From the NCBI GenBank assembly GCA_010909165.1, contig MU008191.1:124001-188000 (forward strand): a stretch of DNA of 64,000 bases, written 5' to 3'. A program made the translations under genes and the position numbers. Every line of letters starts with the position of its first letter. The stretch's first letter is position 1. Below the pieces are notes generated by a model. It saw only the letters and a program-made list of their open reading frames with translations. It was not told the DNA's origin and ran no database searches. Of this stretch, positions 4,066-64,000 are shown one piece after another. This DNA is from Anthoceros angustus (lineage: Eukaryota; Plantae; Anthocerotophyta).

Positions 4066-4244
4066 GGGGCTGAGGTGCAAAGAGCCAACCCGGACCAAGA
4101 CAAGGGGGGTAAGGAGGAGGACCTAGCGATCGAGGTCCACGGAGGTCGGAGTTTGGAGATCGGACCCCGTGTCACGGACCAGGTCCGAACCCAGGCAGGA
4201 CCCAGTAGGTCGGACTCGAAACGGACCCTTGGGTTCGACTCGGG

Positions 4245-26049: not shown

Positions 26050-26231
26050 GAATTAGATTGGGGCAACGATGAATACCTGGACATGCCTTGGTGGTATATG
26101 CCTATGCTTCTTTTTCTACTCACATGGTTTTATGTCATGAATCTTAAGTGGCAATCATGATTGTTGGCATGAATGCCAGCTCTCCAATAGAGTGTGGTGG
26201 AAATTCCCTAGGCTATACGTGTTATGGCGAA
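26050..26231 (+). pseudogene. 5' part of a Harbinger transposase split by the LTR element (start approximate)
   Basis: NRVWWKFPRLYVLWR joins in frame to TSEMGAWH..WHKKYRMS at 42943 onward. Confidence 0.7.
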
Positions 26232-30642: not shown

Positions 30643-30675
30643 TACTCCCTTCTCACTGTTGGCGTCTCGCCAACA

Positions 30676-33600
30676 CTAAGCGTGTACTTTTCACCGCCAC
30701 CCGTTCACCAGTGGGCGGTTCACCATCCAAGCGCCGTGAGCGGACCCATTGGGGTATACTGTACGACTTGGTAAGGCCCCATCCATCGTAGGTGGAGTTT
30801 ACAGGAAGTGCATATGTCGGTATCGTAAGGAGGCGGATCTCCCTCCTTCACATACTCCCGATTCTAAAACGCTATCATGCCACGGCTTGCGTTGATTACA
30901 TACCGATTGCATTATTATTGCGCCTCTTCCGGTCCTCCGTGTCTTGTACAAACCCTAGCAACCGCTCGGTTGGCTCTCTTCATCCGTTAAGCGCCTTTCC
31001 ATCATGACCGGAGTGTTGGCACCTCAAACTCGGCCGGCATAACGGGTGAGTGCCGCCGTCGAATAATACGGAGTTCGTTGCGTGGTTACCTTCTGCCGTT
31101 ACGAGCGCCCGCCGATGGCGACTTTGTATCGATCGTGCGCATAGTTAACCGTCGCTTATTGAGGATCGGCGAGATAAGTCCATTGGTCTTCTCCGTCGAT
31201 CCGTTGGCCTTGGATTGTAGGGGCGTTTACGATGTGTGATTGCGAAATAGTCCGTCATTGCGTTATCACATCATTGAGGAAATGGGTTCCCCTATCACCG
31301 GTAGCGGACACCCATACCTTGTGATGATGTTTTCGTGAGGAATTTGGCCACCGTGCTCATGTCCGTTCGTAGCGACCTTCAACCCACAGTGCGGTGGTCC
31401 GTTGCCACCAAGATGTACCGCTTACATGTGCACGGTGGTTGGTGTATGGGTCCAGTCGATGCCCATTTCTCAAAAGGCGCTAGTGCTAGTATGGGCACTA
31501 ACGGCCATTGAGTTGTGGCCGTCGGCTTCCCGATCCGCGGACAAGCATCACACTTCTTCACAAATTGGTGTGTTTCCCCATACATGGTGGGCCACAGTAC
31601 CCAGCCTCCAAGATTTTCTTGGTGGTGACCTGTGCTGCATAATGTCCACCACCTAGTCCTTCGTGCATCCCCTTTATTACCACCTCCGTTTCCGTCTGTT
31701 GGAGGTACCTTCGTTCCACCGTCCCTTAAAGATGCACGTTATCTGATAGGAAAGGCGGCGTAGTGCACAAAGGCTGCCTGGACCCGGTTCGATTCGTTGG
31801 GTAGCTCCATCTCCCATAGGTACTTCCAACTCCGCGTAAGAGGCCGCCCCTGCGTCCTCCTTCTGCCGTGGGTCCTGTTCACCCGACTTGGGTTTGTCGG
31901 TGTGCTCCTCTACCTCCTCCTCTATCGCGCCACCAATTCCTCATCCAAGGCGTCCTCTTGATCCTGCGGGGCAGGCTCGTTTTAATGGATAAGAAGTCGG
32001 GCGTTGGTGTTGCGTCCTTGCCTAGTCTCCACCTCAAATGTGAACTCCTGTAGCAGAATCCACCTCGCAATTCGTCAGGACAAGTCGCCTTGTTCACCAA
32101 ATGCTTGGTAGTGATCAACATAGAACACAAACTCATTGGGCGGAAGGTAGTGTCCGAATTTCTTCAGTATACCATACCCAATGCCTCTCGCTCCGTAGTA
32201 GTGTACCTCCGTTCGCGTCGTGGTGTCTTCAGCGTAGTAGATTGGGTGATCCCTCGTTTATCATCTTTTGGTGAGCACTACCCGATGGCGGTGACACATC
32301 CGTACACATGGAATCGCTTCCCCGGTCAGGTCCTTTGAGTCTTGGGGCCGACAGTGGTGCGGAGGTCTCTGAATCGCCTCCCTTTACGGCGTCGGTCCAT
32401 TCCTCCTCCTTCTGAGTAGCTCTTAGCACAGGCCCGCTTTGCAAAATCTTGTATGAAAGCGATAGTAACCCATGCCGGAATCCCGTAACTCCTTCAAGTT
32501 CGTTGGTGGGCTGCAGGGTGGATGACTTTCACCTTGTCTTGGTCCACCTCTATCCCTCTTACGACACTCGGTGCCCCAACAAGATTCCTCATCATGCAGT
32601 AGCATTTCTCGGGATGCGAGCCGTTGAGTCTCCTACATCGTTCCAAACACTTCCATAATGTCCGTGTTTGTCCTCCTCTCCGTGCACCAGTCCAAGAACA
32701 CCTCCATGAAGTCCCTCGGGAATTCCGGAAGACATTGGTCACCATCCGCATAAATGATCCGGGTGCTCTGTCATCCCGCACTCCGTTTGTAGGCAAGCGT
32801 CCCCACTCCGTGGTGAATGTTGTCTTATCGGTCAGGCTCCCTTAGGTATGGCGGTTGTGGCCGATGGCCGTCAAGAAGGAGTAGGTACTCCGGCCCACCT
32901 TGTCTATGTCGTCCACAAAGGGCATGGGAAATGGTCCTTTTAGTGGCGGCGTTAAGCTTTCTCCGATCTGGACCGAATCGCCCTGCTGCTTCTTGGCCCG
33001 ACCACAATGCGCCACCCACTCCTTTGTTCACGATTGGGAAGATGATGTCGCTTCGGATACTTATCCGGACTTCCTTGACCTTGGCGAGTGCTTGGGATTG
33101 ATTTATCTTGCCTAATCCGAGGCACGCTCACGGCTTCGATCTATCCGGTGTTAGCCTTGTTTGAATGCCTTTCATATCCGTGACCTTGAAAGCAAACACC
33201 TGAATTCCCCAACAAGCTGTGAGGTCTCGTTTAACCCTCGGCATGCCCTTGCGGAATTTGAGAATTTCACAGGCGAACCTCCACGTCTTCCACATCGTCG
33301 GGTTGAGTCTCCCTTTCTCTTTGCGCTCGTCCAGCCGTCCTCCATCGGGTTCATCTTCACGCATTCCCCACTCCGAAGAGCTCGTCCAGTGAAGCAGGTT
33401 ACTTCCTCGGTTCTACTCCCGTCTCTGCTGGACCCTCCTCTTGATTGCCTTCCCGGCTCTTGTTCCGCGAGTCCACCCTAAAACAATCGATGACCTCCTC
33501 GTCCACCTCGCTCCAAAGGCGTCCTCCGGTAATCCATCTCCTCCTCGACCACGTGATTTTGGGAAAGGGTAGTCCTCATTCGTATCCTCGCGTTCATCGT

Positions 33601-35985
33601 CCCATGTCTTGGTGAGGTGTACCCTACGTGGTCTTGTGGTTTCTCACCACGTGTATGTCCTCCAGTGTCGCTACCGTCCTTCCCTCACCTTGGATCCCAG
33701 TCCGGCTTGAAGTGTATCTCCTTCCGTCCAGTGTAGTTTTGTCGGCGAGGCCAGCCGCTAGCGGACCTCATACCCGGAGTCGGGGTCGATGACAAAATCT
33801 AATGTATAGGGGCTCCGCTATGGTGGCTTGGACTCGGGACAACTCCCTGGCGCTCGCGCATGTCGCCATCCACGAGGGTTTTGGTGGATGGCTCGAAGGT
33901 GGTGAACCCGGCCGTCTTGCGGTGGCCTCGGTGATGAGGTTCACTCGACCCGTGTCTAGAGGCGTTTTAATTACACCCGCAATTTCCACACTGCTGGCGC
34001 CCGGTCGTATGAGATCGACCCTTACCTCACGTTCTTGCCCTTAGGACCAAGGGTTCCGCGTGGTTGCGTTTCACGATGGCCTTCGGACTTCACAGCCGAT
34101 ACGGGTTGTCCTTTAACAAGCGCCTAAGGGACACCAAGTGTTGTTGGTCCATCATCAAGTCGGCCACCTTGAAAGGGCGGGTGGTTCTCTGCGTCCGCGT
34201 TCGCCTTGTCTCCTCCGGTTTGGCTCTCTGTGGTGGCGGACCACTTAGGTCTGTCGGAGTTCTTCTTGAAGCATCTCGGTCACTTCCGAACCACATCCGG
34301 TGGAAGCTGCGTTGCCGTGGGTGTCCGCTTCTCAGGAGACTCCGGTGGCTTTTGGGGGTTCTTCTCTGGCGGGCTGCCGGTTTAACTCGTCCTCTTTGGC
34401 GGGTTCGGCTTCCCAGTGTTCCGTCCTCCGTATCCGTGGGACTATCCTCATTTTCTTCCTCTTGGCTCCGTTCCTTCGCTCCTTTCGGCGACTCGGGTTG
34501 ACACTTCCGGTACCTCGGTCCGCCTTCTTCTCCTTGGCGAACTTGCCCGTACCACCTCGTTCGAGCTCCTCGGTGCCTCCTCCCCTCCATGATTGTCGTC
34601 TTCAATTTATGCAGGCGCCGCCTTAGGGAGGGCGTGGTCTTGGCTCCCGGCCGGGGTTGCGTGGCTGCCGTCTCGGCGAGATTCGGACCGAGTCTTGCGC
34701 ATGTGCCCTTTGCCCACAATCTCCACGGCCGTTCAAAGTCCGTTGTATGCGGTGGGGTATGGGCCAGGCGTTGGAGTAGTGTCGGGGTTCCCAGTTCCAA
34801 CGGACCGCCGCCCGAGAATTCTGGAGGGCTCCCATGCGGTTGCATCGGAGGTGATGGATGGACCTCCGGCGGGTACATCGTCACGGGATCGTGGTCCGGT
34901 TGTGCTTCTTGCACTTGGTCATCCTCACTTTGTTCCTCGGACTCTTCCCGTAGTCGTACTCCACAGTTCACGGGTGCGGAGGGCGGTTGGCCTTGAATGC
35001 CCATGTTGGTGTGACACGCAAATGAGTCGACGTGGTGGTCGCTCACTCTTTCACACGGTTGATCGTCAACTCCTCCACCCTCTTCATTACCGTTCTAGAT
35101 CTTCCCTCGGCCGCTACTTCCTTCAAAGGCTGGGTCGAAGGACCTCTGCCGGGCATCATGACCTCCTTCTTTTCCACCCTCGACTCACCTCTTCTTCTTT
35201 TTTGCGGTTCTTCTTCTTCCTCTGCCTCCTGGATTCTTCGAGTCCTCTTCCTCTTCCTCCAAGTGCCTCGGTCTCATCATCCTCCTCGTCAGGGTTCTTC
35301 ATCTTGATTCCGATTCTTCTTTTTCTTCTTTCCTCCTGGAGGTCCTCGGCCGTCGTTGGTGCATCGATTCTTCATAGTTCTCCGCCGCCCGCCTTGCTCA
35401 CATCTTTCTGCAAGCAACGGCATGTAGCCATTGGCTTGGATAAGCCATGCGAACCACGCACTTTGCATGGTAGTGTGGGTGGGGTGCCGTCCAGTAGAAC
35501 CGTTCGATGTCGATCCCAACTTCTCCGTCTTCCTCTTTGGGTTCTCGAGTTTGGACAAGATGTAGCCTTCTTGATCGATTCGCGGAATCTTTCTGAAGGC
35601 ATCCTTCAATCTTGAAGGTTGCGGGGGCGTTACGGGTGGTCGGTATTTCCTCCGATACCAGGCCTGTCCCGAGGACCCTTGGAGCAATTTGGATTAGCTG
35701 CGTCACCTTCTCCGTTGAAGTTTGCTCGGGACAAAATCCTCCAAAGGTTTGCATCTCTCTCCTTCTTACCCAAAGAGAGAAACTTGGTCGGTTGTTGCCA
35801 TCCGATCGCAAGGGGTGAGGAACCGCCCCCGCCACACCGCTGCTGCTTCCTCCTCGATCAAACAACTCCACCACTTACAGCGGTTGTGCCTCTCGAGCTC
35901 GTCGTCTCTCACGTACTGCGCTCGGGGCTCGGCGATCCACAACGTCCGACTCTCTTAATTCCTTAACTACCTCCGTCCTCCGCAT
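30676..35985 (-). pseudogene. gag-pol (gag, protease, RT, RNase H, integrase), heavily frameshifted
   Basis: LDTG (protease), RKLNAATK, LLDG, APGSFMRMVTNVF (RT), CDAC..PFEKW, YILVATD (integrase). Same family as 1-1504. Confidence 0.88.
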
Positions 35986-36006
35986 CCGCAGCTGGGCGAT
36001 TTCATT

Positions 36007-36021
36007 CCCGCAGCGGCGCCA
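36007..36021 (-). promoter_or_regulatory. Primer binding site, tRNA-Asp type
   Basis: TGGCGCCGCTGCGGG on the minus strand, 3 nt after the LTR end CCACA. Resembles the Athila PBS TGGCGCCGTTGCCGGG. Confidence 0.8.
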
Positions 36022-38142
36022 AAATGTGGCGCGACTTTGTGATGGCCAGCGGGCGCGCACAATCCGTGTCGTTGTAGGAAGAAGTCCGTTCCCAAAGGAA
36101 TGATAGGCTCCGTTTAGCGTTTGGTGATTCCGCACTTGCGCTCGTTCGGTCTCAACACATACTCTAACTACTCTAGCGTTCACCGTCTGAGCCGGTATGG
36201 CCAAGCGTTTGAGACCCGTTCGTCCGTGTCGTTCATTCGTCACTCACACTTCGGTCCTTTCCTCTCTCCCTCACGCTACACTCCTCGGTCTTAGAAAAGG
36301 CCGCGGGTTACCGTCGGACCTCCTCGTCGTTCCGCGGGCCTCTCGTCCGGGCTCTGCGCCCTCCGGAGTTCCTCGGCTCACACGTTCGGTCCGTTCGGTC
36401 TTTGGCGCGGCTCGGGAGCAGGTCACGGTCACTTCACACACACACACACGTTAGGTCGTCACGGGACCACATCAATCTCCCGGGTATCGTGCACCTTTCG
36501 GTGACTCGGGACTCACGTTAGCAAGAAGACACACAAAGGTGCAGAGCGGCATCAACACCAAGAGAAGATGATTTATTGGGCCTTAGCCCTCTTATACTAC
36601 GGAAGGTCGGCGCCTTTATTACACCTCTATTACGGTGAGGCCACTCGGTGTGCCTAACCAGCCGCCTACTACCACACCTATTCACCTATCGCGCCGTCGG
36701 TGGTGGGTGGATAGATTCCTTCTTGGCAGGTGGCCAAAGCCGAGCCACATCGGTGCGGCGCGCAATCGGATGATCGCGGTAGGACCCCTTCCTCTTCAGT
36801 GCATGGTGCGCCACCGGTGGCGGCAGTGATCCACCAAGTCTTCCTCGTCCTCCCTCTTCTCTCTGGCGGGCCCTGCGTGGGCCCTCAAGTTGGATCTGCT
36901 GGGGTTGGTGTTGGTGGCTCTCCCCACTCCCAGTTTGGACCTCGGGACCACTGTCCGACTCAGTCCGGACCTCTAGGTCAGTCTTCCCTCAGGTCCGGTC
37001 TCCTGGCCGGCCTTCTTTGGAGTCCGGTCCTCGGGGCCGGACTTGCCTCACAGGTCGGTCTTGGACCCAACCCTTCCACAGGGTCCGGACCTCGGGGTGG
37101 ACTCGTCACTGAGTCCGGATCCCTAAGTCCGGACTTCCTTGAGGCGGACCTCGGGGTCCGGCCTTTCCTCAGTCGGACAAAGTCAGGACCCTCGTGGGCA
37201 TGCCTCCTCACGGGCTGGTCAGGTTCATCCATGAGCCCTCCCTTGGTTCCCGAATGCCCGGTTGCCCCTTCCTCTCAAGATCCTCCCTCGTCCTTCCATG
37301 CGAGGGTCCGAGTCTTACCTCGGTGGCGCCTTCCTCCTCCGGTTCCTCCTGCTCCCTCGCTTCTGCTGCCGTCGTCAAGCAGGCGCTCCTAGGACTCCAG
37401 CGGTTGTCTTGTCCCGGGTCCGTCCTCTCGCTCCTCCTTCCATCCCTTGGAGTCCACCCTCCACCTGGTGGCGCGGGACCTCAGCCTTGAGGAGCTCTGC
37501 GTGGTAGTAGCGGTCGGAATCGACAGATCGCCTCCTCACATGAGCCGGGCACCGTACTCCCTCCTCAGGTGCTCGGCAGGCGGCGCCCTGGCCGTCTCCG
37601 TGGCCAAGCTTACGGTATGGTAGGCGGACTCCCTTGAGGCCGTCAAGGCTGCCTCAGTTACCTCTTGCAACCTTCCTTCGCTCGGCGTTCTCCTCCTCCG
37701 TCGTTGTTTGACTCACGATTTGCGGGCCATGGGTGAGCTCCTTACCTTCCTGGCCGGACGAGCAATGCCTTTCCTCCAGTGCTTTCTTCCTTCTATTCTT
37801 TCCGGAGGTCCTCCACTTCCTTCTCCGGGGCGGTATCCCGTCAGGCTCACGGCTTCCGCCACATCTGCTGCAACCTTGCGGCGTCGAACTCCTTGCCGCC
37901 TATTCTCCTCCGTCTTCAAGCGGGCTGGGCGTTCACCTCTCGCTCGAAGTCTTGGATTCTCGTTGAGAACCCCTGCGCTCCGTGCATCTTGGGTTGCAAC
38001 TCCAAGGTGTCCTTGTTGTCCTCCGGCTCCTGCCGCCCTTCTACCTCCTGCAGTGCACCACAGGGTCCCCAATCTCCCGGGTCTGGCCTCATGCCTCCTC
38101 CTCGGCTTGCTCCTTGCTCGGCCCAGTTGGCCGCGGCTCTCT

Positions 38143-39170
38143 GCCGCCTCCCTCCACGGTTCGATCACGCAGGTAGTGATCGCGATCGGCCGCCTCCCTC
38201 CACCGGTTCGATCACCGATGATCGCGATCGGCTCGCCGTGGCCTCCGCCTCCTTGGCCACCTTCACAGAGCCTCTCGACGGCTCTGGTCGTCAGGCTGCC
38301 TCCGCGAGATCCGCCCGTTCCGCTTGCGCGTCCTCGCTTCTGCTGCGCTCGCCCCTGCACTGCGAGGTCCTCCGCCGCTTGGGCCTCCTTGCACCGCCGC
38401 TTCTATTCTCCTCCGTCTTCAAGCGGGGGGCGTTCCACCTCGCTCGAAGTCTTGGATTCTCGTTGAGAACCCCACTGCTCCGTGCATCTTGGGTTGCAAC
38501 TCCAAGTGTCCTTCTGTTGTCCTCCGGCTCCACGCCCTTCTACCTCCTGGTGCACCACAGGGTCCCCAATCTCCCGGGTCTGGCCTCCAGCCTCCTCACG
38601 GCTCGGCCGTGCTTGCTCCTTGACCACTTGCTCGGCCTTGAGTTGGCTGGCTCTCGGCCGCCTCCCTCCACGGTTCGATCACGCAGGTAGTGATCGCGAT
38701 CGGCCGCCTCCCTCCACCGGTTCGATCACCGATGATCGCGATCGGCTCGCCGTGGCCTCCGCCTCCTTGGCCACCTTCACAGAGCCTCTCGACGGCTCTG
38801 GTCGTCAGGCTGCCTCCGCGAGATCCGCCCGTTCCGCTTGCGCGTCCTCGCTTCTGCTGCGCTCGCCCCTGCACTGCGAGGTCCTCCGCCGCTTGGGCCT
38901 CCTTGCACCGCCGCTTCTATTCTCCTCCGTCTTCAAGCGGGGGGCGTTCCACCTCGCTCGAAGTCTTGGATTCTCGTTGAGAACCCCACTGCTCCGTGCA
39001 TCTTGGGTTGCAACTCCAAGTGTCCTTCTGTTGTCCTCCGGCTCCACGCCCTTCTACCTCCTGGTGCACCACAGGGTCCCCAATCTCCCGGGTCTGGCCT
39101 CCAGCCTCCTCACGGCTCGGCCGTGCTTGCTCCTTGACCACTTGCTCGGCCTTGAGTTGGCTGGCTCTCG
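38143..39170. repeat. 514-bp essentially exact tandem duplication
   Basis: Identical ORFs offset by 514 nt (38291/38805, 38324/38838, 38403/38917). Confidence 0.92.
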
Positions 39171-42070
39171 GCCGCCTCCCTCCACCGGTTCGATCACCGA
39201 TGATCGCGATCGGCTCGCCGTGGCCTCCGCCTCCTTGGCCACCTTCACGAGCCTCTCGACTTGGCTCTGGTCGGTCGGCTGCCTCGATCCGCGCCCGTTC
39301 CGCTTCCGCCCGGGCGTCCTACGCTTCTGCTGCGCTCGCCCTCTGCTGAGGTCCTCCGCCGCTTGGGCCTCCTTGGCACCTTGTTCCTCGGTGAAGGAAT
39401 TTAGTCCGGTCCTTGCGGATGGACGGACCTCCCTCTCCGCCTCCCGTTTTCCTTCCTCAATCCTGAGAGCTTGGCCTTCCTTCTCGCCTCCAGGCCTCCA
39501 GCTGCTCTGGAGGAGTACCATGCGCTCGGGTGGCTTCCACCTCCACAGGCCTTCTCGGCCATCCCGCCAGAGCATACCGTCCATGGCGGTAGCAGGACCC
39601 GCCGTGTTTCCTTCCACGGCCCTGATGAGGCTCCCACAAAGTCCGTGGCGGGGCCGGCATCTCCGCGTCAGGACCTCCACCATGATCCGGAGCAAGTCGG
39701 TGGGTTCTCGGACAATCGGGACCCTTAGGTCACGAGTCTTGGCTCGGGCTTCCCCTCCTTGGCCCTTTTGCGCGAGCTCCTTCTCGCCCTTTTCCTCCAC
39801 GGGGCTCGGCGGAGGTGATGGAGTCAGAGCCTTTGCCCCTTCACTGTCGGCGGCAGGACCCGGCTGATCTTGCCGGTGTCCTCCACTCCTGGCGGCGTCC
39901 TTTACGCCCTCCTTGCTTCCTCGCTTCTTGCCACTCCGTCGGCGGGGAAGAATCTTGCACCGGCCCAGGGGTGCAGCGTTGGTAGCCGTGGTCTTGCGTC
40001 TCTTGGCTCTCTCACAGTCCGGGGCTCCTCGGTAGGAGTGATGGCGGTGGCGGGGCTGGGGTCAGGCTTCTGTGGGTGCTCGGTTGGGGCACGGAAGGAG
40101 GAGGCGGGTGCTTCCCATACTTCCACAGGTGGTGAGGGGTCCGTTCAGGGCGTATGGGTCAGGAATCCTCGATCGTCCTCCTCCGAGTCCGTTTGGTTTT
40201 TCGGCGACCGGCCTCCTCCTCCGGCCCTTGCCGCTCCACTTCGGAGCCTCGGTCCTTTCCGGGCGCTCGCTCAAGCTCTCCTTCCTTGAGCTCAAATGCC
40301 CCCATACATGGATCGGTATGGGGCGGCCCAGAATGGCGAGGCTTCTCGGTCCGAGCTTGCGAGCCTCTGGCTAAACCGGGCGAAGATAATCCTTCCCAGT
40401 CCGCCCTCTTCCCAGCTGCGCGTGCGGGAACACCAATAGATTATCACCAAGGTGATCCACCTTGGTAGTAGGTTCGATGGACGATGATCCGGGCCACCGC
40501 CCGACTCATTGTCAGCAGTCGGATATCGACCAACCGTTGGTGGTCCGTTGCGTCGAGCCTTAGCATCGGCTCTTTGGCCTATCTTCCCTTCGCCTTGAGG
40601 GGCTCGGCACCACTCCCCTCTTCCTCCTTGGGCGGTTGTAGGCCGCCTCCCTCCACCGGTTCGATCACGGGATAGTGATCGCGATCGGCCGTGGCCTCGC
40701 CTCCTTGGCCACCTTCACGAGCCTCTCGGCTCTGGTCGTCAGCCTCGCGAGATCCGCCCGTTCGCGCCGGGCGTCCTCGCTTCCTGCTGCGCTCGCCCTC
40801 CTGCGGAGGTCCTCGCCGCCCGGGCCTCCTTGGCCCCTGTTCCTCCGGTGAAGGAATTTAGTCCGGTCCTTGCGGATGGACGGACCTCCCTCTCGCCTCC
40901 GGCGTTTTCCCTCAATCGGAGCTTGCCTTCCTTCGCCTCCACAGGCTCCCTCCAGCTCAAGGAGTACCATGCGCCTCGGGTGGCTTCCTCCAGGTCTTCG
41001 GCCATCCATGCGGACCCCGAGCATACCGTCCATGGCGGTGGCAGGACCGCCGTGTTTCTCCACGGCGGCTGCTGTGAGGCTCCCACAAAGTCCGTGGCGG
41101 GCATCTCACGGTCCGTCAAGGACCTCCATACCCTTGATCAGCAAGTCGGTGGGTTCTCCGGACAATCGGGACCCTTAGGTCACGAGTCTTGGCTCGGAGC
41201 TTCCCCTCCTTGGCCCTTTTGGCGCGAGCTCCTTCTCGCCCTTTTCCTCACAGGGCTCGGCGGAGGTGATGGAGTCAGGAGCACGCCCTTTGCCCCTTCA
41301 CATCGGCGGCAGGACCGGCTCTGGATGCGTGCTGCGGTGTCCTCCTGCTCCACAGGCGTCCCTTTACGCCCTCCTTGCTTCCTCACTTCTTGCCACTCCG
41401 TCGGCGGGGAAGAATCTTGTGCCAGGGGTGCGTTGGTAGCCGTGGTCTTGCGTCTCTTGGCTCTCTCACAGTCGGCGGGGCTCCTCGGGGAGTGATGGCG
41501 TGGCCTGGGGTCAGGCTTCTGTGGGCCCTGGTTGGGGCACGAGGAGGAGGCGGGTGCTTCCACAGGTGGTGAGGGGTCCGTTCAGGGCGTATGGAGTCAG
41601 GAATCCTCGGTCGTCCTCCTCCGAGTCCGTTTGGTTTTCGGACGCCTCCTCCCTCGGCGCCCTTGCCGCTCCACTTCGGCGGGGCCTCGGTCCTTTCCGG
41701 GCGCTCGCTCAAGCTCTCCTTCCTTGAGGAGCTCGAAATGCCCCCATACATGGATCGGTATGGGGCGGCCCAGATGGCGCTTCTCGGTCTGAGCTTGCGA
41801 GCCTCTGGCTAAGCGGCGAAGATAATCCTTCCCAGTCGCCCTCTTCCCAGCTGCGGTGCGGGAACACCAATAGATTATCACCAAGGTGATCCACCTTGGT
41901 GAGTAGGTTCGATGGACAATGATCCGGGCCACCGCCTACTCGGTCAGCAGGTCGGATATCGACCAACGTTGGTGGTCGTTGCGTCGAGCCTTAGCGCCGC
42001 TTTGGCTGGCCTATCTTCCCTTCGCCTTGAGGGGCTCGGCACTCCCCTCTTCCTCCTTGGGCGGTTGTAG
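39171..42070. repeat. ~1.45-kb imperfect tandem duplication (39171-40640 and 40641-42070)
   Basis: Same landmark sequences repeated, e.g. GATTATCACCAAGGTGATCCACC at about 40439 and 41873. Confidence 0.85.
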
Positions 42071-42938
42071 GCGCCTCGGGACCTCAAGGTCCATCGCCTT
42101 GGGTCCTCCGGAGGTTCTTGGACCGCACCTCCTTATTGACCGCCCGGCATCTTGGGCAAACTCCGGACGGTGACATCAAATGTCGGACCATTTGGAACAC
42201 ATCCAAATGCCACTCCTGCACCAATTCTCCCGCTTCACGGGCGAGCCCAAAGTCCGGATAGCGCGGGTCACAATGTTGCGCTCCACAAGGTTCCATGGCT
42301 CCCAAACTTCGCGGGCTTTTGGGTGCCATCGCCTTCTCCTCCTTGGTTCATGGCGCTTGTGAGGCTAGCGGCACGTTGCGCCTTCTTGGCGCGTTGGCTC
42401 CGACCTCAGCGGTGAGCGCGCGAGCGTCGTGTCCACGAGATACCGCGGAGCGGTTGCGGGCGCGAGATCGCGTGTCTCGGTGCCGCGACCTTCTTCCGCG
42501 ACCACGCCTTGGGAGTAACGGCGGGCGCCTCTTCCACATCATGGCCGTGCGCGCACTGGCCCTGCTGCCGCGTACTCCTCGCGCGTACTGCGGCCTTCGC
42601 GCGCGTGCCACGGCCCCTCGCGCGGCGACGTGAATACTGCTATAACGGCCTCACGGCAAGGTTACGGTCGACCCTGCATGCCGTCCTCCACTCGGTCGTC
42701 ACGTGGCGTCGCCTGGTCAGTCCTTACGCCCAACTTCTAAGTTACTTTCCTGGCGTACTTATCACCTGGTCACAGTGGGTCGGACTTACCCGTTGCCGTC
42801 GCACGTTCCTCACTCCGGTCGGTATACTCCAGTGCCGTCCGAGTGCTAACCGTGCTTATTTCCTCCTTTTTCGCCTCATTTTATCCTTCGCTCCACAAAA
42901 AAACAAAATCCTACCTAATTTTCTTGAAGTCAGTCCAC

Positions 42939-44050
42939 TGAACATCTGAGATGGGCGCATGGCATCATGGCAATTTAATTAGCTTGGATGTGCAATGGCA
43001 CAAGAAGTACAGGATGTCATAAAGCTTTTCCTGCGGGTTGGTAGACATGTTGGACCCTTACCTCACCAGGAATTCTCCACGAAAACCTCTAGATATATAC
43101 CTTATTGTGGCTTTTGTTTTATGTAGGCTTGCAAAAGGACAATCCCCGGAAGATGTGGCAGACATCTACAGAGTAGAAGTTTCTAGTGTTGTTCATGATA
43201 CGCAACTGGTTACTAGAATTTTGGCTCATCCTCGTGGCCTTTGTGCTAGATTCATCAAGTGGCCATCATTAGAAAGACAGGCTGCAGTCTCTAGAGAATT
43301 CAGGGCGATCACTGGATTTCCAAACGCAATGGGGTCGATAGATGGTTGCCTTATAAAATTGTGGCAAAAGCCAGCGAGACAACACACACCTGCAGCTTAG
43401 TGGTGCAGACATGACATTTTCAACATTATACTGCAAGGAGTTGTAGATGTAGATGAGTTTTTCATTGATGTGTCTTGCAGGATGCCAGTTGGTCATCATG
43501 ATTTTGCAATGTTACAAGACAGGAGAATTTGGAAAAATTACTCCACAAGACTATCATGGATGGTCCTTGCATGAAATGATTCTTCAAGATCCTCCAGGTC
43601 TCAGACTTCAACGAAGAGGTCCTTCTAGGGTACACTTACCTCCGTATCTGCTAGGAGATAGTGCCTACCTCTTATTCCCCTTCCATGTGAAACCATTCAA
43701 TCGTGGAAGTGGGCTTGACAAAAGTGTGGAGCAAGAGCTTGAGCAGGGGCCGTATTACAGTGGAGAACGCATTTGCCAAGCTGAAAAACAGTTGGAGAAT
43801 CCTCAAGAACATGAACATGAAGTTGGATCATTGTAGCCAAACGGTTATTGCATGCTGTGCTCTGACAAACTATTGTCGAACGTGCGGCGATCCACCTCCA
43901 GACAACTTGCAAGGAGAAAGATATCCATGGCAGCTCAAAGGTATGGGAATACTTGGCGAAGCAGAGAGAATTTTGAACAGGAGAGCAAAGCAGCAAAGAG
44001 AAAACTTGTTCTTATTTTGGAAGCAAGAAGGGAACTTGCAGGCTCTATAG
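42939..44050 (+). pseudogene. PIF/Harbinger DDE transposase, 3' part, disrupted
   Basis: GFPNAMGSIDGCLI, LQGVVD, YLLGDSAY, RITVENAFAKLKNSWRIL, IACCALTNYC. Confidence 0.92.
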
Positions 44051-44059
44051 GTCAAGCAT

Positions 44060-44993
44060 ACATTGTTTTCTATAGTGCTCAAGTCACTTGAAGACAAAAT
44101 TGTTGTCATTGCACTTGTGTCCTTGCCTGCATTTCTTCTCGCTTTAGTTCGAACTCCAATCTGATTTTATTTATCTCTTGCATCTGCTCAATCTTTGTAA
44201 GTTCCACCTTGGACATGGTCTCTGCAAACGAAGCCAATGCCTTGCCAAACTCTACACCAAAATCAATGTCCATAGAACGTTTCCCCTTCTGTTTTCTAGT
44301 TATAACCCTTCACGATGCAATTCTAGATACATCGCAAGCTAGGGCTTGGTGTGCCACTAGAGTTGGTCAGGGTCTTTTCCAGAGTAACTTTGAAACATGT
44401 ACTAGCACAAAGCGGGACCCTTGTAGTCACTTTGTTCGCACCCCCTCAGAGACCTGTTGCAATGACTTTTGGGTAAGACAATTCCTTCACAGGAGAAATG
44501 GCATCCTCATCTACACTCTGGCAACAGTACCTGAACCTGCATTCGCAATGGAAAGAAAAGGTTCATCAGGGCATGCATCGTCTAAATTGATGATAGGGGT
44601 GTCTGCTTTCGGGTTACACCCATATGGAACACCTGAAACCTTGGGATTGTCAAACATAACAGCATCAAACAGCTCGAAATATGGCCATGTCGGAGCCCCT
44701 TGGCCTGGCTGTGTCTTCTTCTCTTTCTCCTTTTTGTAGACCCTCTTCAGGTTTTCGACTTTCTGTTTACAACCTGTAACTTTGAAAGCACAATACTGGA
44801 CCTCGTGGGCAATCTCTTCCCAAAGTTTGTGCTTCAAGTTACCTCAATTCAACATAACATACTTGTCGGCATAAGCATCTACCAAGGCGATTGTGCTATC
44901 TTGTGTCCAATTTGCGACAAGATGCCAAGGCTGGAGTGGACGTAGATTGTGTGAGGGCTAGCTCCTCCATATCTTCGACTTCCACATGCTCCA
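44060..44993 (-). pseudogene. Myb/SANT (trihelix-like) DNA-binding ORF of the Harbinger element; ends approximate
   Basis: LWEEIA..CKQKVENLKRVYKKEK..WPYFELFDAVM, convergent with the transposase as in two-gene PIF/Harbinger elements. Confidence 0.8.
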
Positions 44994-46409: not shown

Positions 46410-47787
46410 AATGAATTTTTGGCCCACAATCCCCTTGTTTGCCCACCAAGGAGATGCGACACGAGCTAAACGCACAAACGTGTACAAAAGAGATCAAAGG
46501 AAAAGGAGACTCAACTATGTCTATGTAAATCCTAGGGTCTACACCAACATATGTAGTCTTCTACATGTGTAATCTCTCGATAAGAAGAGATCAATTTATT
46601 AAAACAAATTAAAACAATTATATTAGATATATAATAGTACTGAGTTATTAATTAATCATCTTAAATATATCATTATAATTTGTAGAGTACAGTTTTAACC
46701 CTAAACCTGGTCTTTATATATCCGTTTTCCTAATTGGGACCTCTTAACTCCATAAGGACAATGCTACTCAAATCGGTGTCATTTTGCCTTTTTTTTGAAC
46801 AAAAATTATAAAATACATGGTTGCCTACTATGTGAAATTATCAGCTCTATCTTCCATTATTTTTTTTCCAGAAAACTCTTATTTTAGGCCATGAATTTAA
46901 AAGAAACTTCTATAGAAAAGTCCTACCATGGTGGGCTCTAATAATGGGGTCCTTCAACGGTGTCTAAAATCCACATGCGTCACCTTCTGCACCCAAACTT
47001 CAAGCCTCACGGCGTTTGTGCCACCCTTTGGCCTTCATGGAAGGCCAGCCAATCATTGCCTCGCTCTCCACGCCCGAAACTCTAATTGCCGGTGCCTTCC
47101 CGCTATTTTCCTTAGCTTTGCCATTGGCTAAACTTACTTTGACATATGCGGCCACCTGCCATCTCCTCCATTATTCCACTTCTATACACCAGTATCAACG
47201 GCGCTCTAACGCGTCCTAACTCTCCTTCTTTCCCATTTGCGGAAGCTTGGTTACAATCTCTGCTCATTAAAGAAGGTCTCCTAAGAAGTGGAGACAGGCT
47301 ACACTTTTTAGAGACTGAGGTCGTTTTGGCCAAATTTGACCTCTAAAATGAAAACGAAACGCTCTTTTGAGGGTTTTTCCAGAAAAGAAGCCCAAAAACA
47401 CACTTTTTGGGGGACCTAACGTTGTCAAAAGCAATTTTTCTAGGTTTCTCATGCCTTGGGACCCTACTTGGAATGATCTAGGATTTTACCTGGTTTGAAA
47501 AAATCCCATTTTTCACATTTTTCGAGCAGATTCAAAGCACACTACCAACATTAATGACATAACGCTATTTTATAGATTGGTTGAGGCAAGCTGTAAATGG
47601 TGCCGATGCTTTATAAAAAATTATGTTCCAAAGAAACGGAACAGATATGAGTATAAATATCACCGTAATTTCAAAACTACATATCATCATCACTCCTAGG
47701 AAAAGTGTAGGTTTACCATGGATATTACTAAGGAATTCAAAACGTAATTTACTACTTATGTAGTACAACGATAGTAGTAAATGGCTA

Positions 47788-47892
47788 TCGATTGAAACGC
47801 GGCAAACAGAGCCTATCATTCTCTTGGGAGCGGACTCCTTACTACAACGACACGGGATTGTGCCGCCTACGGCCATCGGTAAAGTCGCTACT
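47788..47892 (+). mobile_element. Short remnant of the gypsy LTR 3' end
   Basis: GAGCCTATCATT..CTACAACGACACGGGATTGTG..AAAGTCGC matches the LTR terminus. Confidence 0.8.
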
Positions 47893-48708
47893 GCAGTCTT
47901 GAACAAATGGAGTGCGAAGATGCTAAACTGCTTTAGCCTGCCAAGCGGACAAAAGCTAAGCAACAGCATGTCTCCACTCACAGATGTTGAGAAGGCACAA
48001 ATGCTGAATATTTCTTATAGACAAGGAGTAGGGAAACTTATCTATGCCGCAAACACCACTCGTCCAGAAGTCGCTTGTGCTACAAGCATTCTTTCGCAAT
48101 GCCTTGAAAACCCTGGACAACAGCATTGGTAAAGTGTTAAGTGTGTATTTCGTTAATTGAAGGGAACACCACACATAGGCATCAAGTACTGCTATAAAAA
48201 AGGAAAAGGTCTTGATCTTACGGTTTACACTGATTTAGACTATGCAGGAGATATAGACACTCGAAGATCAATGTCTAGGTATGTAGTTTGTATGGCAGGT
48301 GGCCCTATATGTTGGTCTAGCAAGAAGCAGCCAACAGTGGCTCTCTCTAGTACAGAAGCTGAGTATCGAGTTTTAACAGCCGCAGCTACGGAGGTGGTTT
48401 GGTGTAAACTGCTTCTCAAAGAGCTTGGCTTGCAGATACCAACCTGTACAGTTATCAGAACTGATAATCAAGGAGCAATGGCATTTGCAAGAAACCCTCT
48501 GTTTCACTCTCAAACCAAACACATTGGTGTGGAGTATCACTACATCAGAGAACTAGTGACATTAGGGCAGATAGGATTAGAATACATACCAACTCAAGAC
48601 AACCCTGCAGATATCTTTACGAAAGCTCTCGGAAAGGAGCTACATGAAAAACATGTTAAAGGTCTGAGTTTAGGTGAGTCATCCACCTTCCTAGCTAACC
48701 CACCATAG
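47893..48708 (+). pseudogene. Ty1/copia RT C-terminus and RNase H fragment
   Basis: YRQGVGKLIY..TRPEV, YTD.DYAGD..TRRS, WSSKKQPTVALSSTEAEY, DNQGA, KHI..YHYIRE, ADIFTKAL. One in-frame stop at about 48130. Confidence 0.95.
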
Positions 48709-49242
48709 TCTACTTCTAAGAGGAACTCAATAACTGAAGTCCGATGAGGACTCATAGCTGATTGAACACTCATCTCCTGAACGTGGAGAGATTGAATCAG
48801 AAATACTGTCTTCAGTAGGGTTCTCATAGTCTGGTTCATAGGGTGACAAGAAGCTCTCATTGGACCTCGGAGAGTTGTGTGTCATGCGTTCTTGGTAGGA
48901 TAGCCTCTCCTCAGTCTCCAAGCTTTTCTCTCTCTCAATCCGGTCTTTAGATCCTGTTGGAAGCAGTAGGAGTGAGCAAGTTATCAAAATACATACATAA
49001 TATTGAAGAAGAAAAGTCAGTAGTGACGAATAAAGTGGAACTTACTGTAAACACTGAACACGCGGCCAAGAAACTGTTGACATATATGGACTCTAACACG
49101 AACCATTCTTATGCGCGTGTACCTATACTTGTACCAAATTGGAGAGCAAGGCTGGCTGCAATTGCCGAGACTCACAATTCTCGTTTCCTTGTCAAAGTCC
49201 CCGTGGGGGAACTTCCAAGGCACAGGCGGCCCGGAATCAGAG

Positions 49243-52200
49243 TGTGGCGGGACTTTCGCTGATGGCCAGCCGGGCGCGCACAATCCCGTGTCGTTGTAGT
49301 AAGGAGTCCACTCCCAAGAGAATGATGGGCTCCGTTTGCCTCGTTTCAATCATTTCGTCCCTCACGTAGTATCGGTTCAGTCTCAATACACCTATTCATC
49401 GTTTTAAACCTAACTACCCACAATGCTCACCGACAGGCCCGGTGCGGCCAAACGTTTAAGGACCCGTTCGCGTCCGTGTCGTTCAAGTTCGTCACTCAAC
49501 CCTCTAGTCCGTTCCTCTTACCACTCTCACTACTCTCACCATCCTTGGGAAAAGCGCGGGTGGCTACGCGGTCCGGACCTCCTCCGTAGCTCTGCCGGGC
49601 CTCTCCGTCCGGGCTCTGCCGCCCGGAGTTCCTCCGGCTCCACACGTTCCGGCCGTCCAGCGGCACCCTGGATGAGCAAGGGTCCCTAGGCGCTATTCCA
49701 CATACACCACCACACGTTAGGGTCTCACCAAGACCTTGATCTCTCTCCTCCGCTTTCGATGACTCAGGACTCGCGTTAACAAGAAGGCACCCAAGAGCCT
49801 GCCAGAAGACGCGGCATCAACACCAAGAGAAAGATACTTTACTCAGGGCAGCCTCAGCCCTCTTATACTACGCCGAAGGTCGGCACCTTTATTACACCTC
49901 TATTCCGGATGAGGGCTGGCTCGGTCGCCCTAATCGGCCGCCTATTCTCCTATTCCTCCTATCTCCGCCGTCGGTGGTGGTGCAGGATAGATTCTCTTGC
50001 ATGGCCCAAGGCAGCAGCACGCATCGGGATCCGCGGGACCCTACCTCCCCGGTGCAGGCTGCGCTACGGGCGGGCGGCGACAGCGGTCACCACTAAGTCC
50101 TCCTCCCCCTCCTCTCTTATCTCTCTGGCGGGCCCCTGCACAGCGGGCCCTCCAAGGGATGGATCTGCCGGGGCTGGTGATCGGTGGCTCTCCCCCACTC
50201 CCTGAGTCTGGACCTCAGGACCCCGTCTCGACTTCGGAGTCCGGACTTCTAGGTCCGGCCTTCCCTGTCACGACATAGGGTTAGGGTAACCATGGTTAAG
50301 AGGTATAGTTAGGTTAAAAGGTATAGTTAGGGTTAGGGTAACCATGAGTGTAAAGGCTACTTAAGCCACAATCAGTCGTAATGAAGGCAGAGCTAGTTGT
50401 GTGCTTCCACATTGCTCGATCGCTGACCAAGTTCATGGTACAACCTGTATCGAGCGGTCGGATTGTTGGTGGGGATGGCGGCGATTTGAATCGGTTGCAT
50501 CGCAACTATCGAGCTACGCGATTCGATCGACATGAGGAGGTGGTAGCACGATTTCAAGCGAGCGACCGGTTCCGACGGCCGAGGGTGAGATACGTGGCCG
50601 CCCTTGGGGTACACTTTGTACAGGCGAAGGGCAGCATGTGGGTATTTTACTAGGCGGAGTTGTGTAGAGAGGCTTTATCGGTACCTGGAAGGACCTGCTT
50701 GATTTGGAGCGAGCGAGCAAGGGCTGGATTTGCCTCACGGCGAGATCGAGGGAGAGCTCTGCCAGCGAAGGTTTTGCGAGGTACTGGGGCCACAATGTGG
50801 ATTTCGAGGGGAGACTACCGCCACCATCTTGCCGGAATAACTGCCAATCCCCCACACCGTCATAGGCGGTCGAGGGCGTGACCCAGGGCCCTTGTGCTCT
50901 ATACCGCCCAACGGCAGCAAGGGTGGACACGCCACGACAGGCGACGGAGGATCTAACGACCGGCTCACCGAGGAGGCAACGGGCGAATAAGAGGCGATCA
51001 ACTCGCGGGGCTTGAGGTCATGCCAAGGGCACTACAGATCATGTACTAACCTTGGTGTAAGCTGGACATGAAATCCCGGGCCGCAGCGAGGGCTCTGTGG
51101 TGTCTGGCAAGGTGATTCCCAGGCCAGTCCGCGGCCTTGTGGTACTTGCACCAAGATTGCTGTGCAAAGACTGTTCTTGTGTGTAAATTGAGTCGAAATC
51201 CCGGGCTGAAGCGACAGCCCTGTGGCTCACAGGGAGGCTGTTCCCAGGCCAGCCGCGGCCTTGTGGTGCCTCCGTCGAGGGTTTTGCTCGATGAGTCGCA
51301 AAGTGTGAAGCTTCTCGACGATCCCGGCGAAGATGATCCTTCCGATGCCCCTCCTTCCTCTCTGCAGGCATGCGGAACCCCAGAATTGTCACCAAGGTGA
51401 TCTACCTTGGTGAGCATGTTCCGATGGACAATGATCCTAGCCATTGCTCTCACCCTCACATCGGCAAACTGACATCAACCGTTGGGTTGGGTTGCAGCCC
51501 CTGCTTTATGACGCGGCCTTTGCCGCCTCATTTTTCCTGCGGCCTTGGGGGTTCCAACCACGCCCCCAATTTCCTCCGGACGGGCCAGTCACCCCTCGGG
51601 ACCTCCACGGTCCACCTCCTAGGGTCCTCTCAAGGCTCTTAGATCGAACCTCCTGGCTGGCGCCAACATCTTCCGGCGTACTCCCGGACGGGCGGCTGTT
51701 GTCGAAGGTCATGACACGGAAAACGTCCAGGTGCCACTCCTTGACCAGCTCCCCCGCCTCCTCCAGCCACGGCCCGAAGTCCGGGTAGCGCTTGGTGACG
51801 ATGTTGCGCTCCACCAAGCACCATGGCTCACAAACCTCCGCCGCCTTCTTGGGTCCCATCCTCCCGCTCCCTCTGTCCCGCTGCTGAGGCGTGAAGCTCC
51901 ACAATCTTTCGCTCCTTAGTCGCGGTGTCAGTTGCTTCACTCGCCAATTCGAATGCGCGAAGGATCTTTGGAGCAATAAAAAGACAACGCCAGAGCCGGG
52001 TGTAGCGCGAGAATGCGAAACTTCGCCGAAGTTGTTTGGAAGAATGACCTCCGCCTCACTTCTCTCCGCGGAAGTAACCGGCGGGGCGGCTCTTTCTTGT
52101 CCGTGGCGCCGAGCTGCATGGCCCGCTTACTTCCGCCCACTCGGCCTTACTGCCGCGCGCTGAGCGTGAATACCTGCATGCGGCCAGCAGCATGCTACTA

Positions 52201-52509
52201 CGGCTGCTGCGCATGCCGTCTTCCATTCGAGGCCATCCACGTGGTGCGCCTGTCTAACTCACGCCCCAACTTCTAAATTACCTTACTAGGCGCTTATCCC
52301 ATTCGACCGGAGGGTCCGGACTTATCCGATACTCGGTCGTGGTCCGGGGTCCCGGAGTGCGGGGTCCGTTACCGAGTCAGTGCACTCGGATTGTGCTCGG
52401 TGCCGTCGTCTTATTCCTCCTTTTCCGTCTCATTTTACACTCCATTCCTACGAAAAAAAAAAAACAAACCCCGCTTATTTCCCAACCCAAGGGGAGTCCG
52501 TTGTCCACA
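49243..52509 (-). mobile_element. Solo giant LTR, third subfamily, with perfect TSD CAGAG; internally rearranged; ORF ATG at 51859
   Basis: CAGAG|TGTGGCGG...GTCCACA|CAGAG. Encodes MGPKKAAEVCEPWCLVERNIVTKRYPDFGPW..KEWHLDVF and RVRAMARIIVHRNMLTKVDHLGDN. Confidence 0.92.
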
Positions 52510-53295
52510 CAGAGTCAGAATAAGCATATTCACCATCCTCAAATCTGCGCTTGGCACAAGCAGCTTTGGAAAACTGTTTCACTTTCCTTGGCAGGTTTGG
52601 AGGGTACACCCATGCCTAGTCTCTCACCAAATGGCCGACTAGCAACAACAGCAGCCCTTCTCTGAGCCAACACAGCCTTCGTGACACCTAGTGGGCGCCT
52701 GGGCGTGAGACATACCCTCCGCGTCGATCACATGAGGAGGCAATCTCTCCTTTCTCCTGGCGAGGCAGTCCTAGTAGAGTGAACCTCCTAGGTCATCTCA
52801 CGCATATTAACGTGGGAGCAAGGATCTCACAGTCGGAAGAAGAAGACATTGTAAGAAGCGCAATCTTTCTCTCGATACGCTCAATGGCAATAAGATGAGA
52901 GCGAAAAAGAGGATTATAAAGGGGATGTACCTCATAACTGGTGGCTTCATACTGGCGCAATGCATGTTTCCCGTTTGGCCACTATCGGGCGTAAACCGCA
53001 CACGAAGTCGAACAATTGTGAGATAGCCTCAGCTGAACTCGAGCACACAAGCAGCTCGCGTTTCAGAGACAGTCCTTCTCATAACCAACAAGTGGGAGTG
53101 ATGAAATAGGGTGTTGGAGTTATGATAAGGGTTTAGGGTTTATTAATATCCCACACATATAGTATGAATAGGCACTTCAATATATTTTCTTTCAACCTGT
53201 TCATTAGGGATATACTCCTTATAAATTGTCATTAACACACTTATAGGAATTTGAGGGGTTAACACATATAGGAATTTGAGTGGCCAACACACACA

Positions 53296-62601: not shown

Positions 62602-62888
62602 TGCGGCCAAAAGAACCACAGGATTTCCCAGCGATTCTGCCAATGCGGGCGCTACACAAACCACAAACTCAACCAAGACTCGCGTTGATCTCCACTCAAT
62701 TCAGCGACGGGGAAAGAAAAGACTGTACAGCGAACGAGAGCAGAAATTGCCTGTGCAGGCGCGGTCTCTGAGGAAGAGCGGCTTCGTGCTTTGTGAGGTA
62801 GATAGGTTAGAACTTCACAAGCCTGACCTCGGGTTGGGACGGGTTTTCCACACATCCACGGATTGTCAAGCCTGATATCTTCGTGTTG
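62602..62888. promoter_or_regulatory. Short (~290 bp) divergent intergenic region; candidate bidirectional promoter
   Basis: Head-to-head start codons at 62601 (-) and 62889 (+). Confidence 0.55.
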
Positions 62889-64000
62889 ATGGCGAGCGAG
62901 AGCGTGCCGGCGGAAGCTGTGCAGAATGTGCTGCGGGCGTCATCGCTGGCGGGGCTCGAGGGCCGGCAATCCGTGTCCGGGTTCGAGTTCAACAATGGGC
63001 TGGACTACGGGGGCTTGCTGCAGGCCATGCAGCACACAGGTTTCCAGGCGTCGCAGCTGGGGAGGGCGGTGGAGGAGGTGAACCGGATGCTGGACTGGAG
63101 GCTGAGCGACGAGCCCGTGGAGGAGGGGAGCAGCGAGGCGGAGCAGGATGCGGGCTTCAGGGCTTCGGTGCGGTGCAAGCTCTTTCTGGGGTGCACATCC
63201 AACCTGGTGTCGTCGGGGGTGCGGGAGAGCATCCGGTACCTGGTGGAGCATAGGATGGTGGACGTGCTGGTCACCACGGCCGGGGGAATCGAGGAGGACA
63301 TCATCAAATGCCTGGCTCCCACCTACATGGGGGACTTCACCCTGCCCGGGGCCCAGCTGCGGGCTCAGGGGCTGAACCGGATTGGGAACCTGCTGGTGCC
63401 CAACGACAACTACTGCAAGTTCGAGGACTGGGTGATGCCGGTGCTGGACAGGCTGCTGGCCGAGCAGAGGGAGCAGGGGGTGCTGTGGACGCCGTCCACA
63501 GTGATTGCCAGGCTGGGCAGGGAGATCGACAACCCTAGCTCCATTTTGTACTGGGCTCAGAGGAACGGTGTCCCGGTGTTCTGCCCTGCGCTCACCGATG
63601 GCTCTCTTGGGGACATGATCTACTTCCACTCCTACCGGAACCCGGGCCTGGTGATCGATATTGTGCAGGACATTGCGCGGATGAACGGGGAGGCTGTGCA
63701 CGCTGCCCCGCGCAAGACCGGCATCATCGTGCTCGGAGGCGGCCTGCCCAAGCACCATATCTGCAACGCGAACCTGATGAGGAACGGTGCGGATTTTTCC
63801 GTCTTCATCAACACCGCGCAGGAGTATGATGGGAGCGATTCCGGAGCTTCTCCGGACGAAGCCGTGTCTTGGGGGAAAATTCGGGGCTCCGCCAAGCCGA
63901 TTAAGGTGCATTGTGACGCCACCATCGCCTTCCCTTTGCTGGTTGCCCAGACCTTCGTCCCAAGAGTTCTCCGGGAGCAGGCACGGCGGCAGGAAGCCCC
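62889..64000 (+). CDS. DHS: Deoxyhypusine synthase, intronless; the stop lies just beyond the window
   Basis: [63 protein letters not shown] (catalytic Lys). Open to the window edge, so absent from the ORF track. Confidence 0.97.

Follow-up and report, generated by a model that had tools for sequence, protein, structure and literature searches.

LARDs have no coding capacity, and the extra open reading frame (ORF) of Ogre elements is situated outside the long terminal repeat (LTR), between the 5' LTR and gag. For plant gypsy elements, PMC6317226 places extra ORFs in the internal region; it also reports 5-bp duplications flanking 93.4% of plant elements and lists tRNA-Asp among the primers used by non-chromoviruses; Diaspora and Calypso use tRNA-Asp according to PMC1142308. 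Solo LTRs with target-site duplications arise, as described in PMC7251063, by unequal recombination, to which longer LTRs are more prone. Here we describe a 3267-bp unit (hereafter E) of the hornwort Anthoceros angustus that is very probably the solo LTR of a Ty3/gypsy retrotransposon, likely produced by LTR-LTR recombination, and that contains an ORF part of which has the appearance of coding sequence. The analysis covers a window of 64,000 nucleotides (contig MU008191.1, positions 124,001-188,000), and all coordinates given below are positions in this window. The larger related LTRs in the window are labeled A, B, C and D, and a short fragment of an LTR end is labeled F. The unit itself is delimited by the following features.

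49238-49242, no strand: left copy of the target-site duplication, CAGAG, read from the sequence
52510-52514, no strand: right copy of the target-site duplication, CAGAG, read from the sequence
49243-52509, minus strand: very probable solo LTR E, 3267 bp, true 5' end at 52509 and true 3' end at 49243, collinear with A
49243-49352, minus strand: highly conserved LTR end of ~110 bp (the true 3' end, which adjoins the primer-binding site (PBS) in full elements), defined by a 19-nt core and alignment

The layout reported in the first-pass annotation, with CAGAG on both sides of TGTGG...CCACA, is correct in all its sequence facts. The terminal TGTGG (49243-49247) and CCACA (52505-52509) form a 5-bp terminal inverted repeat, and the flanking CAGAG pentamers are identical at 5 of 5 positions. 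Because the termini are fixed by homology among the copies, the boundaries of E are independent of the duplication. The 19-nt core of the true 3' LTR end is found in six copies in the window, against 0.01 expected, and these six copies (E, A, B, C, D and F) begin in register at the same TG, the DNA outside being unrelated. At the opposite end, E, A, C and D all finish on ..GTCCACA and the end of B is diverged; past the terminal CCACA, B, D and E pass into unrelated DNA. At boundaries fixed in this manner, the chance of a 5/5 match between the flanks is ~1/1024, or ~3/1000 across the three testable copies. The earlier proposal that the 5-bp duplication gives independent support to the boundaries of a multi-kb LTR is upheld, the ends having been set separately by homology.

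The related LTRs, the interior of one full element and two blocks conserved among the copies are listed next.

26232-30642, minus strand: LTR A, 4411 bp, 3' LTR of a full element, recognized by homology to E and by its purine tract
30643-36024, minus strand: internal region of the A..B element with degraded reverse transcriptase (RT)-RNaseH-integrase; purine tract at 30643-30656 (minus strand), PBS-like motif at 36010-36021
36025-42944, minus strand: LTR B, 6920 bp with internal duplications, 5' LTR of the element to which A belongs, recognized by homology
1538-6139, plus strand: LTR C, 4602 bp, 3' LTR of an element cut by the window start; RNaseH-integrase at 3-1034, purine tract at 1523-1537
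18929-23664, minus strand: LTR D, 4736 bp, probably a second solo LTR, flanked by GGGAT and GACAT, which match at 3 of 5 positions
47770-47895, plus strand: fragment F, an LTR terminus of ~125 bp belonging to the E subtype, 94% identical to E over 79 bp and inverted relative to E
51326-51437, minus strand: the internal LTR block with the widest distribution, sharing 77-83% identity with A, B (two matches), C and D
52211-52327, minus strand: conserved block near the true 5' LTR end, containing CCACGTGG at 52237-52244

When E was compared with the window by BLAST, copies A-D proved to be only 73-82% identical to it, in blocks. The alignment with A is collinear and comprises four blocks and both termini (E 34-1024, 2084-2195, 2352-2618 and 2969-3085, plus the last 130 bp). 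The unit thus combines TG..CA termini and identical 5-bp flanks with homology to a pair of direct repeats that surround a PBS, pol and a purine tract. Examination of the sequence together with a motif search revealed no PBS-like motif near E, no purine-rich flanks and no attached interior, and E has no terminal direct repeats, its self-matches being limited to a ~75-bp pair (51070-51143 and 51195-51267) and short tandem arrays. The identification of the unit as a solo LTR, already made in the first-pass annotation, is borne out by the termini, the duplication, the collinearity with paired LTRs and the lack of pol, PBS and polypurine tract.

LTRs A and B are ~87% identical to each other and the A..B element is therefore old. 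Internal duplications (37895-38708 and 38396-39219, 94% identical; 39170-40649 and 40641-42077, 86% identical) make LTR B 2.5 kb longer than A, the other LTR of the element. A 1.1-kb direct repeat, 97.7% identical, has one copy inside LTR C (4245-5326) and the other outside it (7698-8792), 3.45 kb apart, and may represent a younger nested element or a segmental duplication. In E, the block at 51326-51437 includes an inverted repeat with 9-bp arms and a 5-nt loop (51390-51412). The CCACGTG of the block at 52211-52327 is retained in E, A and B and changed in C and D; CCACGTGG/CCACGTG is presumably a candidate G-box. The GC-rich LTR E also contains an AT-rich island (50277-50345), in which an 18-bp unit repeated 2.1 times lies between two copies of a 19-nt string with TTAGGG-like repeats. 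Approximately 40 bp immediately outside the corresponding ends of A (26190-26231) and E (49200-49242) are weakly alike (GTGG.GGAA.TTCC..AGGC), which is likely due to chance, there being no wider similarity between the flanks.

The class and orientation of the family can be read from the DNA adjoining the paired LTRs. Homology between A and C continues beyond CCACA into integrase-coding DNA (self-BLAST high-scoring pair 1-2771 versus 32192-29383, 81.7% identical overall, of which the first ~1.5 kb is internal). Pfam RT_RNaseH is matched at 3-260 on the plus strand with an E-value of 1.6e-13, and weak Integrase_H2C2 and RT_RNaseH matches are located between A and B. A tblastn search with two gypsy polyproteins produced 14 segments, 5 in 3-1034 (plus strand) and 9 in 33156-30688 (minus strand), in the order RT, RNaseH (RH), integrase (IN); the same search found no pol segment in E, in its flanks or elsewhere in the window beyond 3-1034 and 33156-30688. 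The best matches of these pol fragments are proteins annotated from Marchantia and Riccia, with 69-78% identity, and in this respect the DNA is liverwort-like. A PBS-like motif, TTT followed by TGGCGCCGCTGC, is located at 36024-36010 on the minus strand, 3 nt from the end of B, and is the sole match in the window. TGGCGCCGCTGC agrees with 11 of 12 positions of the ATHILA tRNA-Asp/Asn PBS as printed in preprint 10.64898/2026.03.20.713144, where an AT-rich spacer of 3-6 bp precedes the ATHILA PBS. In both A and C, the purine tract GAGAAGGGAG followed by TA stands immediately upstream of the LTR.

The pol-encoding DNA that A and C share outside the LTR identifies both as 3' LTRs and B as the 5' LTR. 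As judged from these landmarks, A, B, D and E are in truth oriented along the minus strand, that is, the reverse of the window. The orientation assumed in the first-pass annotation is accordingly reversed: the element lies on the minus strand, so that the minus-strand ORF is sense. On the same sequence evidence the family is Ty3/gypsy and Athila-like, with LTRs of 3.3-6.9 kb and a degraded gag-pol. The earlier statement that gag-pol is lacking holds, trivially, for E itself and fails for the family, remnants of RT-RNaseH-integrase being present between A and B and upstream of C. A non-autonomous family of the LARD or TRIM type is ruled out by these remnants.

With regard to the primer, the invariant core at 49285-49303, like its five other copies, contains GTCGTTGTAGTA, which we take to resemble the 5' end of the likely primer, plant tRNA-Asp, and to be a candidate extended primer contact. 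No tRNA was found in the window by ARAGORN. A metagenome scan with the invariant LTR-end motif yielded 53 loci, and these were discarded as chance when BLAST with E, A, D and the F region matched nothing but the 21-25 nt motif.

The presence of an ORF in the unit, claimed in the first-pass annotation, is confirmed. The two features on which the remainder of the argument turns are these.

51509-51859, minus strand: 117-codon ORF in the sense direction of the element, starting with an ATG (51857-51859) and closed by a stop (51506-51508); distance to the true 5' LTR end 651-1001 nt
51680-51859, minus strand: coding-like segment, the first ~52-60 codons of the ORF, recognized by GC content by codon position and by synonymous excess against A, B, C and D

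The ORF lies wholly inside E, a homologous stretch is present inside A, B, C and D, and this stretch is among the few LTR blocks that can still be aligned between lineages. The ATG, a purine at -3 and a G at +4 are retained in all five copies (E, A, B, C and D). In codons 1-52, the GC contents of the first, second and third codon positions (GC1, GC2 and GC3) are 0.62, 0.38 and 0.88, compared with 0.61, 0.44 and 0.83 in the deoxyhypusine synthase gene of the window; the GC3-GC2 contrast of 0.53 is the highest in a six-frame scan of E, the runner-up reaching 0.32, and the signal spans from the ATG to about codon 60.

Differences between the copies follow the same frame. For codons 1-50, the ratio of non-synonymous to synonymous change (ω) is 0.08-0.12 in the ORF frame versus 1.1-1.9 in the two other sense frames. 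These values come from nucleotide alignments; dN/dS estimates on protein-guided tblastn alignments were discarded, as these force similarity through frameshifts (nucleotide identity 0.47-0.64). A six-frame scan of every BLAST segment between E and another copy comprised 286 windows, and the six best of the 286 are all in the ORF frame, with p from 1.4e-7 to 2.6e-5 (the best ~4e-5 after correction for 286 tests) and with 13.5-16 synonymous versus 5-8 non-synonymous differences, where 20-22% synonymous is expected. Copies A, B and C are mutually non-independent in these tests. For the lineage pairs E-D, E-A and D-A, frame 0 yields p values of 9e-4, 1e-5 and 3e-5, as compared with 0.7-0.9 for frames 1 and 2, and the synonymous excess persists after conditioning on base identity (p = 0.002-0.003). 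Simple 3-periodicity of mismatches, with p = 0.008 for the best ORF window among 62 windows, is not significant alone.

From the codon composition and the frame-specific differences, it appears reasonably probable that the first ~52-60 codons were translated in active ancestors of E. Under this reading, the segment would have encoded a peptide that served the active elements and was kept by purifying selection across three LTR lineages. A more ambitious version, which we put forward tentatively and at slightly less than even probability, is that a liverwort-type, Athila-like gypsy lineage keeps a real coding exon of ~52-60 codons, with an ATG in good context, inside a multi-kb LTR, that E, the only unbroken copy in the window, may still be expressed, and that the exon would be a plant counterpart of sag. 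In a limited literature search, no plant LTR with an internal protein-coding ORF was encountered, a result that argues only weakly for the absence of such cases.

The principal alternative is that the ORF is a chance frame in GC-rich DNA, that the block owes its conservation to a cis-acting role as DNA or RNA (promoter, packaging or dimerisation signal), and that the codon pattern reflects composition or a decaying captured exon. We regard this as a serious though somewhat doubtful possibility, and a number of observations weigh against a coding exon. The length of the ORF is ordinary: an ATG-initiated ORF of at least 117 codons occurs in 354 of 500 shuffles of E, and a stop-to-stop frame of at least 206 codons in 101 of 500. 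No homologue is apparent. A phmmer search of the ORF against 1.84 billion representatives returned only two matches, both rejected as artefacts (long tandem-repeat proteins whose scores sum many weak stretches), a search against 218 other gathered proteins gave nothing above 8.3 bits, and there is no Pfam match on the ORF. The single-sequence AlphaFold2 model of the ORF is poor, too weak to support a comparison of folds, and has a mean predicted local distance difference test (pLDDT) score of 52.5, with two helices in residues 3-52 at pLDDT 63-68 and the remainder below 50. Each of the copies A, B, C and D has a frameshift in the first 52 codons, a 1-nt gap at codon 23 being common to A, B and C, and several overlapping frames are open in this region. 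Codons 53-117 are not distinct from the other frames. The GC-rich third positions explain part of the position bias (~12:8:18 expected under G/C-only mutation versus 8:9:21 seen), and the neighboring conserved block coincides with a hairpin, not with a clean frame. Finally, a second stretch, 50087-50261 on the minus strand, gives p ~1.5e-4 for E versus D, and the signal is equal on the plus strand; this is probably a composition effect, there being no GC3 signature in that stretch.

What a chance frame does not readily account for is that the synonymous excess is specific to one of the three sense frames in three lineage comparisons, that the ORF frame tops an unbiased six-frame scan with an excess that survives conditioning on base identity, and that the start codon with its purine at -3 and G at +4 is retained in all five copies. 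A neutrally decaying captured exon would not remain more conserved than the rest of the LTR.

Several other assignments of the segment were considered. The ORF is not the start of gag, as it lies 2.3 kb upstream of both the LTR's 3' end and the PBS. In the ESM Atlas, the whole ORF scored 0.83, and for residues 1-60 the score was 0.91 to clusters made up of fragments 46-56 aa long, sharing 150 features; the IMS family (PF00817), to which 56-59% of the cluster members belong, was rejected, no Pfam IMS match being found at E-values up to 10 in the ORF or in the opposite-strand frames. A search of 49100-52650 against Rfam gave one match only, with an E-value of 0.045 and 21 bits versus a gathering score of 70. 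Upstream of its ATG, E has a TATA-like run that is not retained in A-D, and therefore no transcription start is proposed.

Turning to the origin of E as a solo LTR, the proposed course of events would begin with a staggered cut of 5 bp, made by an integrase at a site 534 bp downstream of a truncated copia pol, where a full element of ~12-17 kb would have been inserted on the minus strand. Unequal homologous recombination between the 3.3-kb LTRs would then have deleted the interior and one LTR equivalent, both CAGAG copies being kept. The insertion and recombination steps, which we infer from the sequence and do not observe, are likely.

Some features of the region fit this history less well. 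There is no clean duplication at the other testable copies (3/5 for D and 2/5 for the A..B element), no intact element of E's own subtype is present in the window, so that the LTR status of E is read from its ends and architecture, and sensitive BLAST of both flanks of E against the window found no second copy or paralogue. It is conceivable that E is a lone LTR produced by illegitimate deletion or by recombination between two elements, with a coincidental match of the CAGAG pentamers; the lack of a clean duplication at D and the A..B element attests to rearranged copies in the region, and fragment F is a truncated LTR end 1.3 kb away. We consider such a coincidence very unlikely, in view of the 5/5 match (~1/1024) at boundaries fixed by homology and of the completeness of both termini; in addition, inter-element recombination yields, according to PMC7251063, solo LTRs without matching duplications. 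That E is a self-contained mobile element of another class with 5-bp duplications (a DNA transposon or a LARD/TRIM-like unit), as its ORF, 5-bp terminal inverted repeats and lack of gag-pol might suggest, is hardly tenable, since E contains no internal terminal direct repeats, homology at both termini links it to the termini of repeats enclosing a gypsy PBS, pol and purine tract, and its ORF matches no transposase family in Pfam.

As a solo LTR with a target-site duplication, E is a textbook case and an ordinary relic. Its value is that of an anchor for annotation: it fixes the ends of a family of unusually long LTRs and corrects the orientation and class of that family. The further suggestion that solo LTRs disperse the accessory ORF does not hold, solo LTRs being immobile relics of full insertions. 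Because a solo LTR cannot transpose, it is the full elements that spread the ORF: each full insertion puts the ORF in both LTRs, recombination leaves one, and E retains it. Should the coding segment be genuine, a small gene would be distributed across the genome in promoter-linked copies by LTRs and solo LTRs, with each insertion planting two copies of the exon and each solo LTR leaving one beside the regulatory DNA of the LTR.

The following feature lies in the DNA into which E would have been inserted.

About 47905-48675 (feature to 48708), plus strand: C-terminal ~260 residues of a Ty1/copia polyprotein, a truncated pol with its stop 534 bp left of the insertion site

Fragment F, 1.35 kb left of E, adjoins the point at which copia is cut off (47896) and truncates it on the left; the remainder of the LTR of F and of the copia element is absent from the window. 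The first-pass annotation also noted that removal of the unit and of one CAGAG rejoins an open frame. Such a frame exists, the minus-strand half-frames 52511-52615 and 49020-49241 being in phase after removal of one pentamer and giving 108 open codons, and it contains no Met upstream of the junction. As evidence, it fails. Across this junction the plus strand likewise has open frames, one of 139 codons and one of 98. Of 388 neighboring positions sampled, 206 fall within a frame of 108 codons or longer and 116 within one of 139 or longer, with a median of 110. Because frames this long are the norm in this DNA, the rejoined frame carries no weight. A search with the left half-frame of 74 residues, restricted to proteins of 131-2000 aa and leaving aside shorter proteins and the right half-frame, retrieved no homologue.

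The window as a whole has the character of plant nuclear DNA, and its genes include those for a pentatricopeptide repeat (PPR) protein of 1172 aa that has an E motif and for a deoxyhypusine synthase, together with ammonium-transporter fragments. The deoxyhypusine synthase ORF (62811-63998, plus strand) runs for 396 codons without interruption, and part of its region is present as an inverted duplicate, ~94% identical (17285-17933 and 63344-64000). To the right of LTR B there are fragments of a PIF/Harbinger-type DDE transposase (DDE_Tnp_4, E-value 9.8e-9) and of a Myb/SANT-like protein (Myb_DNA-bind_4, E-value 2.1e-11), at 43691-44047 (plus strand) and 44514-44843 (minus strand).

Compared with the systems outlined above, E resembles plant solo LTRs that arise by unequal intra-element recombination in its TG..CA termini, perfect 5-bp duplication, lack of PBS, polypurine tract and interior, and homology to paired LTRs. 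It differs from the typical plant LTR in size, 3267 bp being ~6 times the 552-bp median given in PMC7251063. The family is like Athila/OTA in the RT-RH-IN order with no chromodomain after the integrase, and in a PBS that starts TGGCGCCG..TGC and follows an AT-rich spacer of 3 nt, in agreement with the ATHILA motif of preprint 10.64898/2026.03.20.713144. It is unlike Athila in that the LTRs of 3.3-6.9 kb are longer than those usually described for Athila and that no env-like ORF was found. Multi-kb LTRs are shared with Ogre and with elements of the LARD/Sukkula type; unlike LARDs, the family of E has pol remnants, and unlike Ogre, it has the extra ORF inside the LTR.

With Cassandra TRIMs, which carry 5S RNA, and with retrozymes, described as carrying hammerhead ribozymes, E would share the use of an LTR as the vehicle of a conserved functional unit; their modules, however, are RNAs, and no Rfam RNA is found in E. 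Retroviral genes located in LTRs, such as sag of mouse mammary tumor virus (MMTV) and nef, which overlaps U3, differ from the ORF of E, for which no sequence similarity was found and which looks constrained over only ~52-60 codons. In arrangement there is a likeness, namely, a sense ORF inside an LTR that is, for this reason, carried in both LTRs of the element and in the solo LTRs that it leaves.

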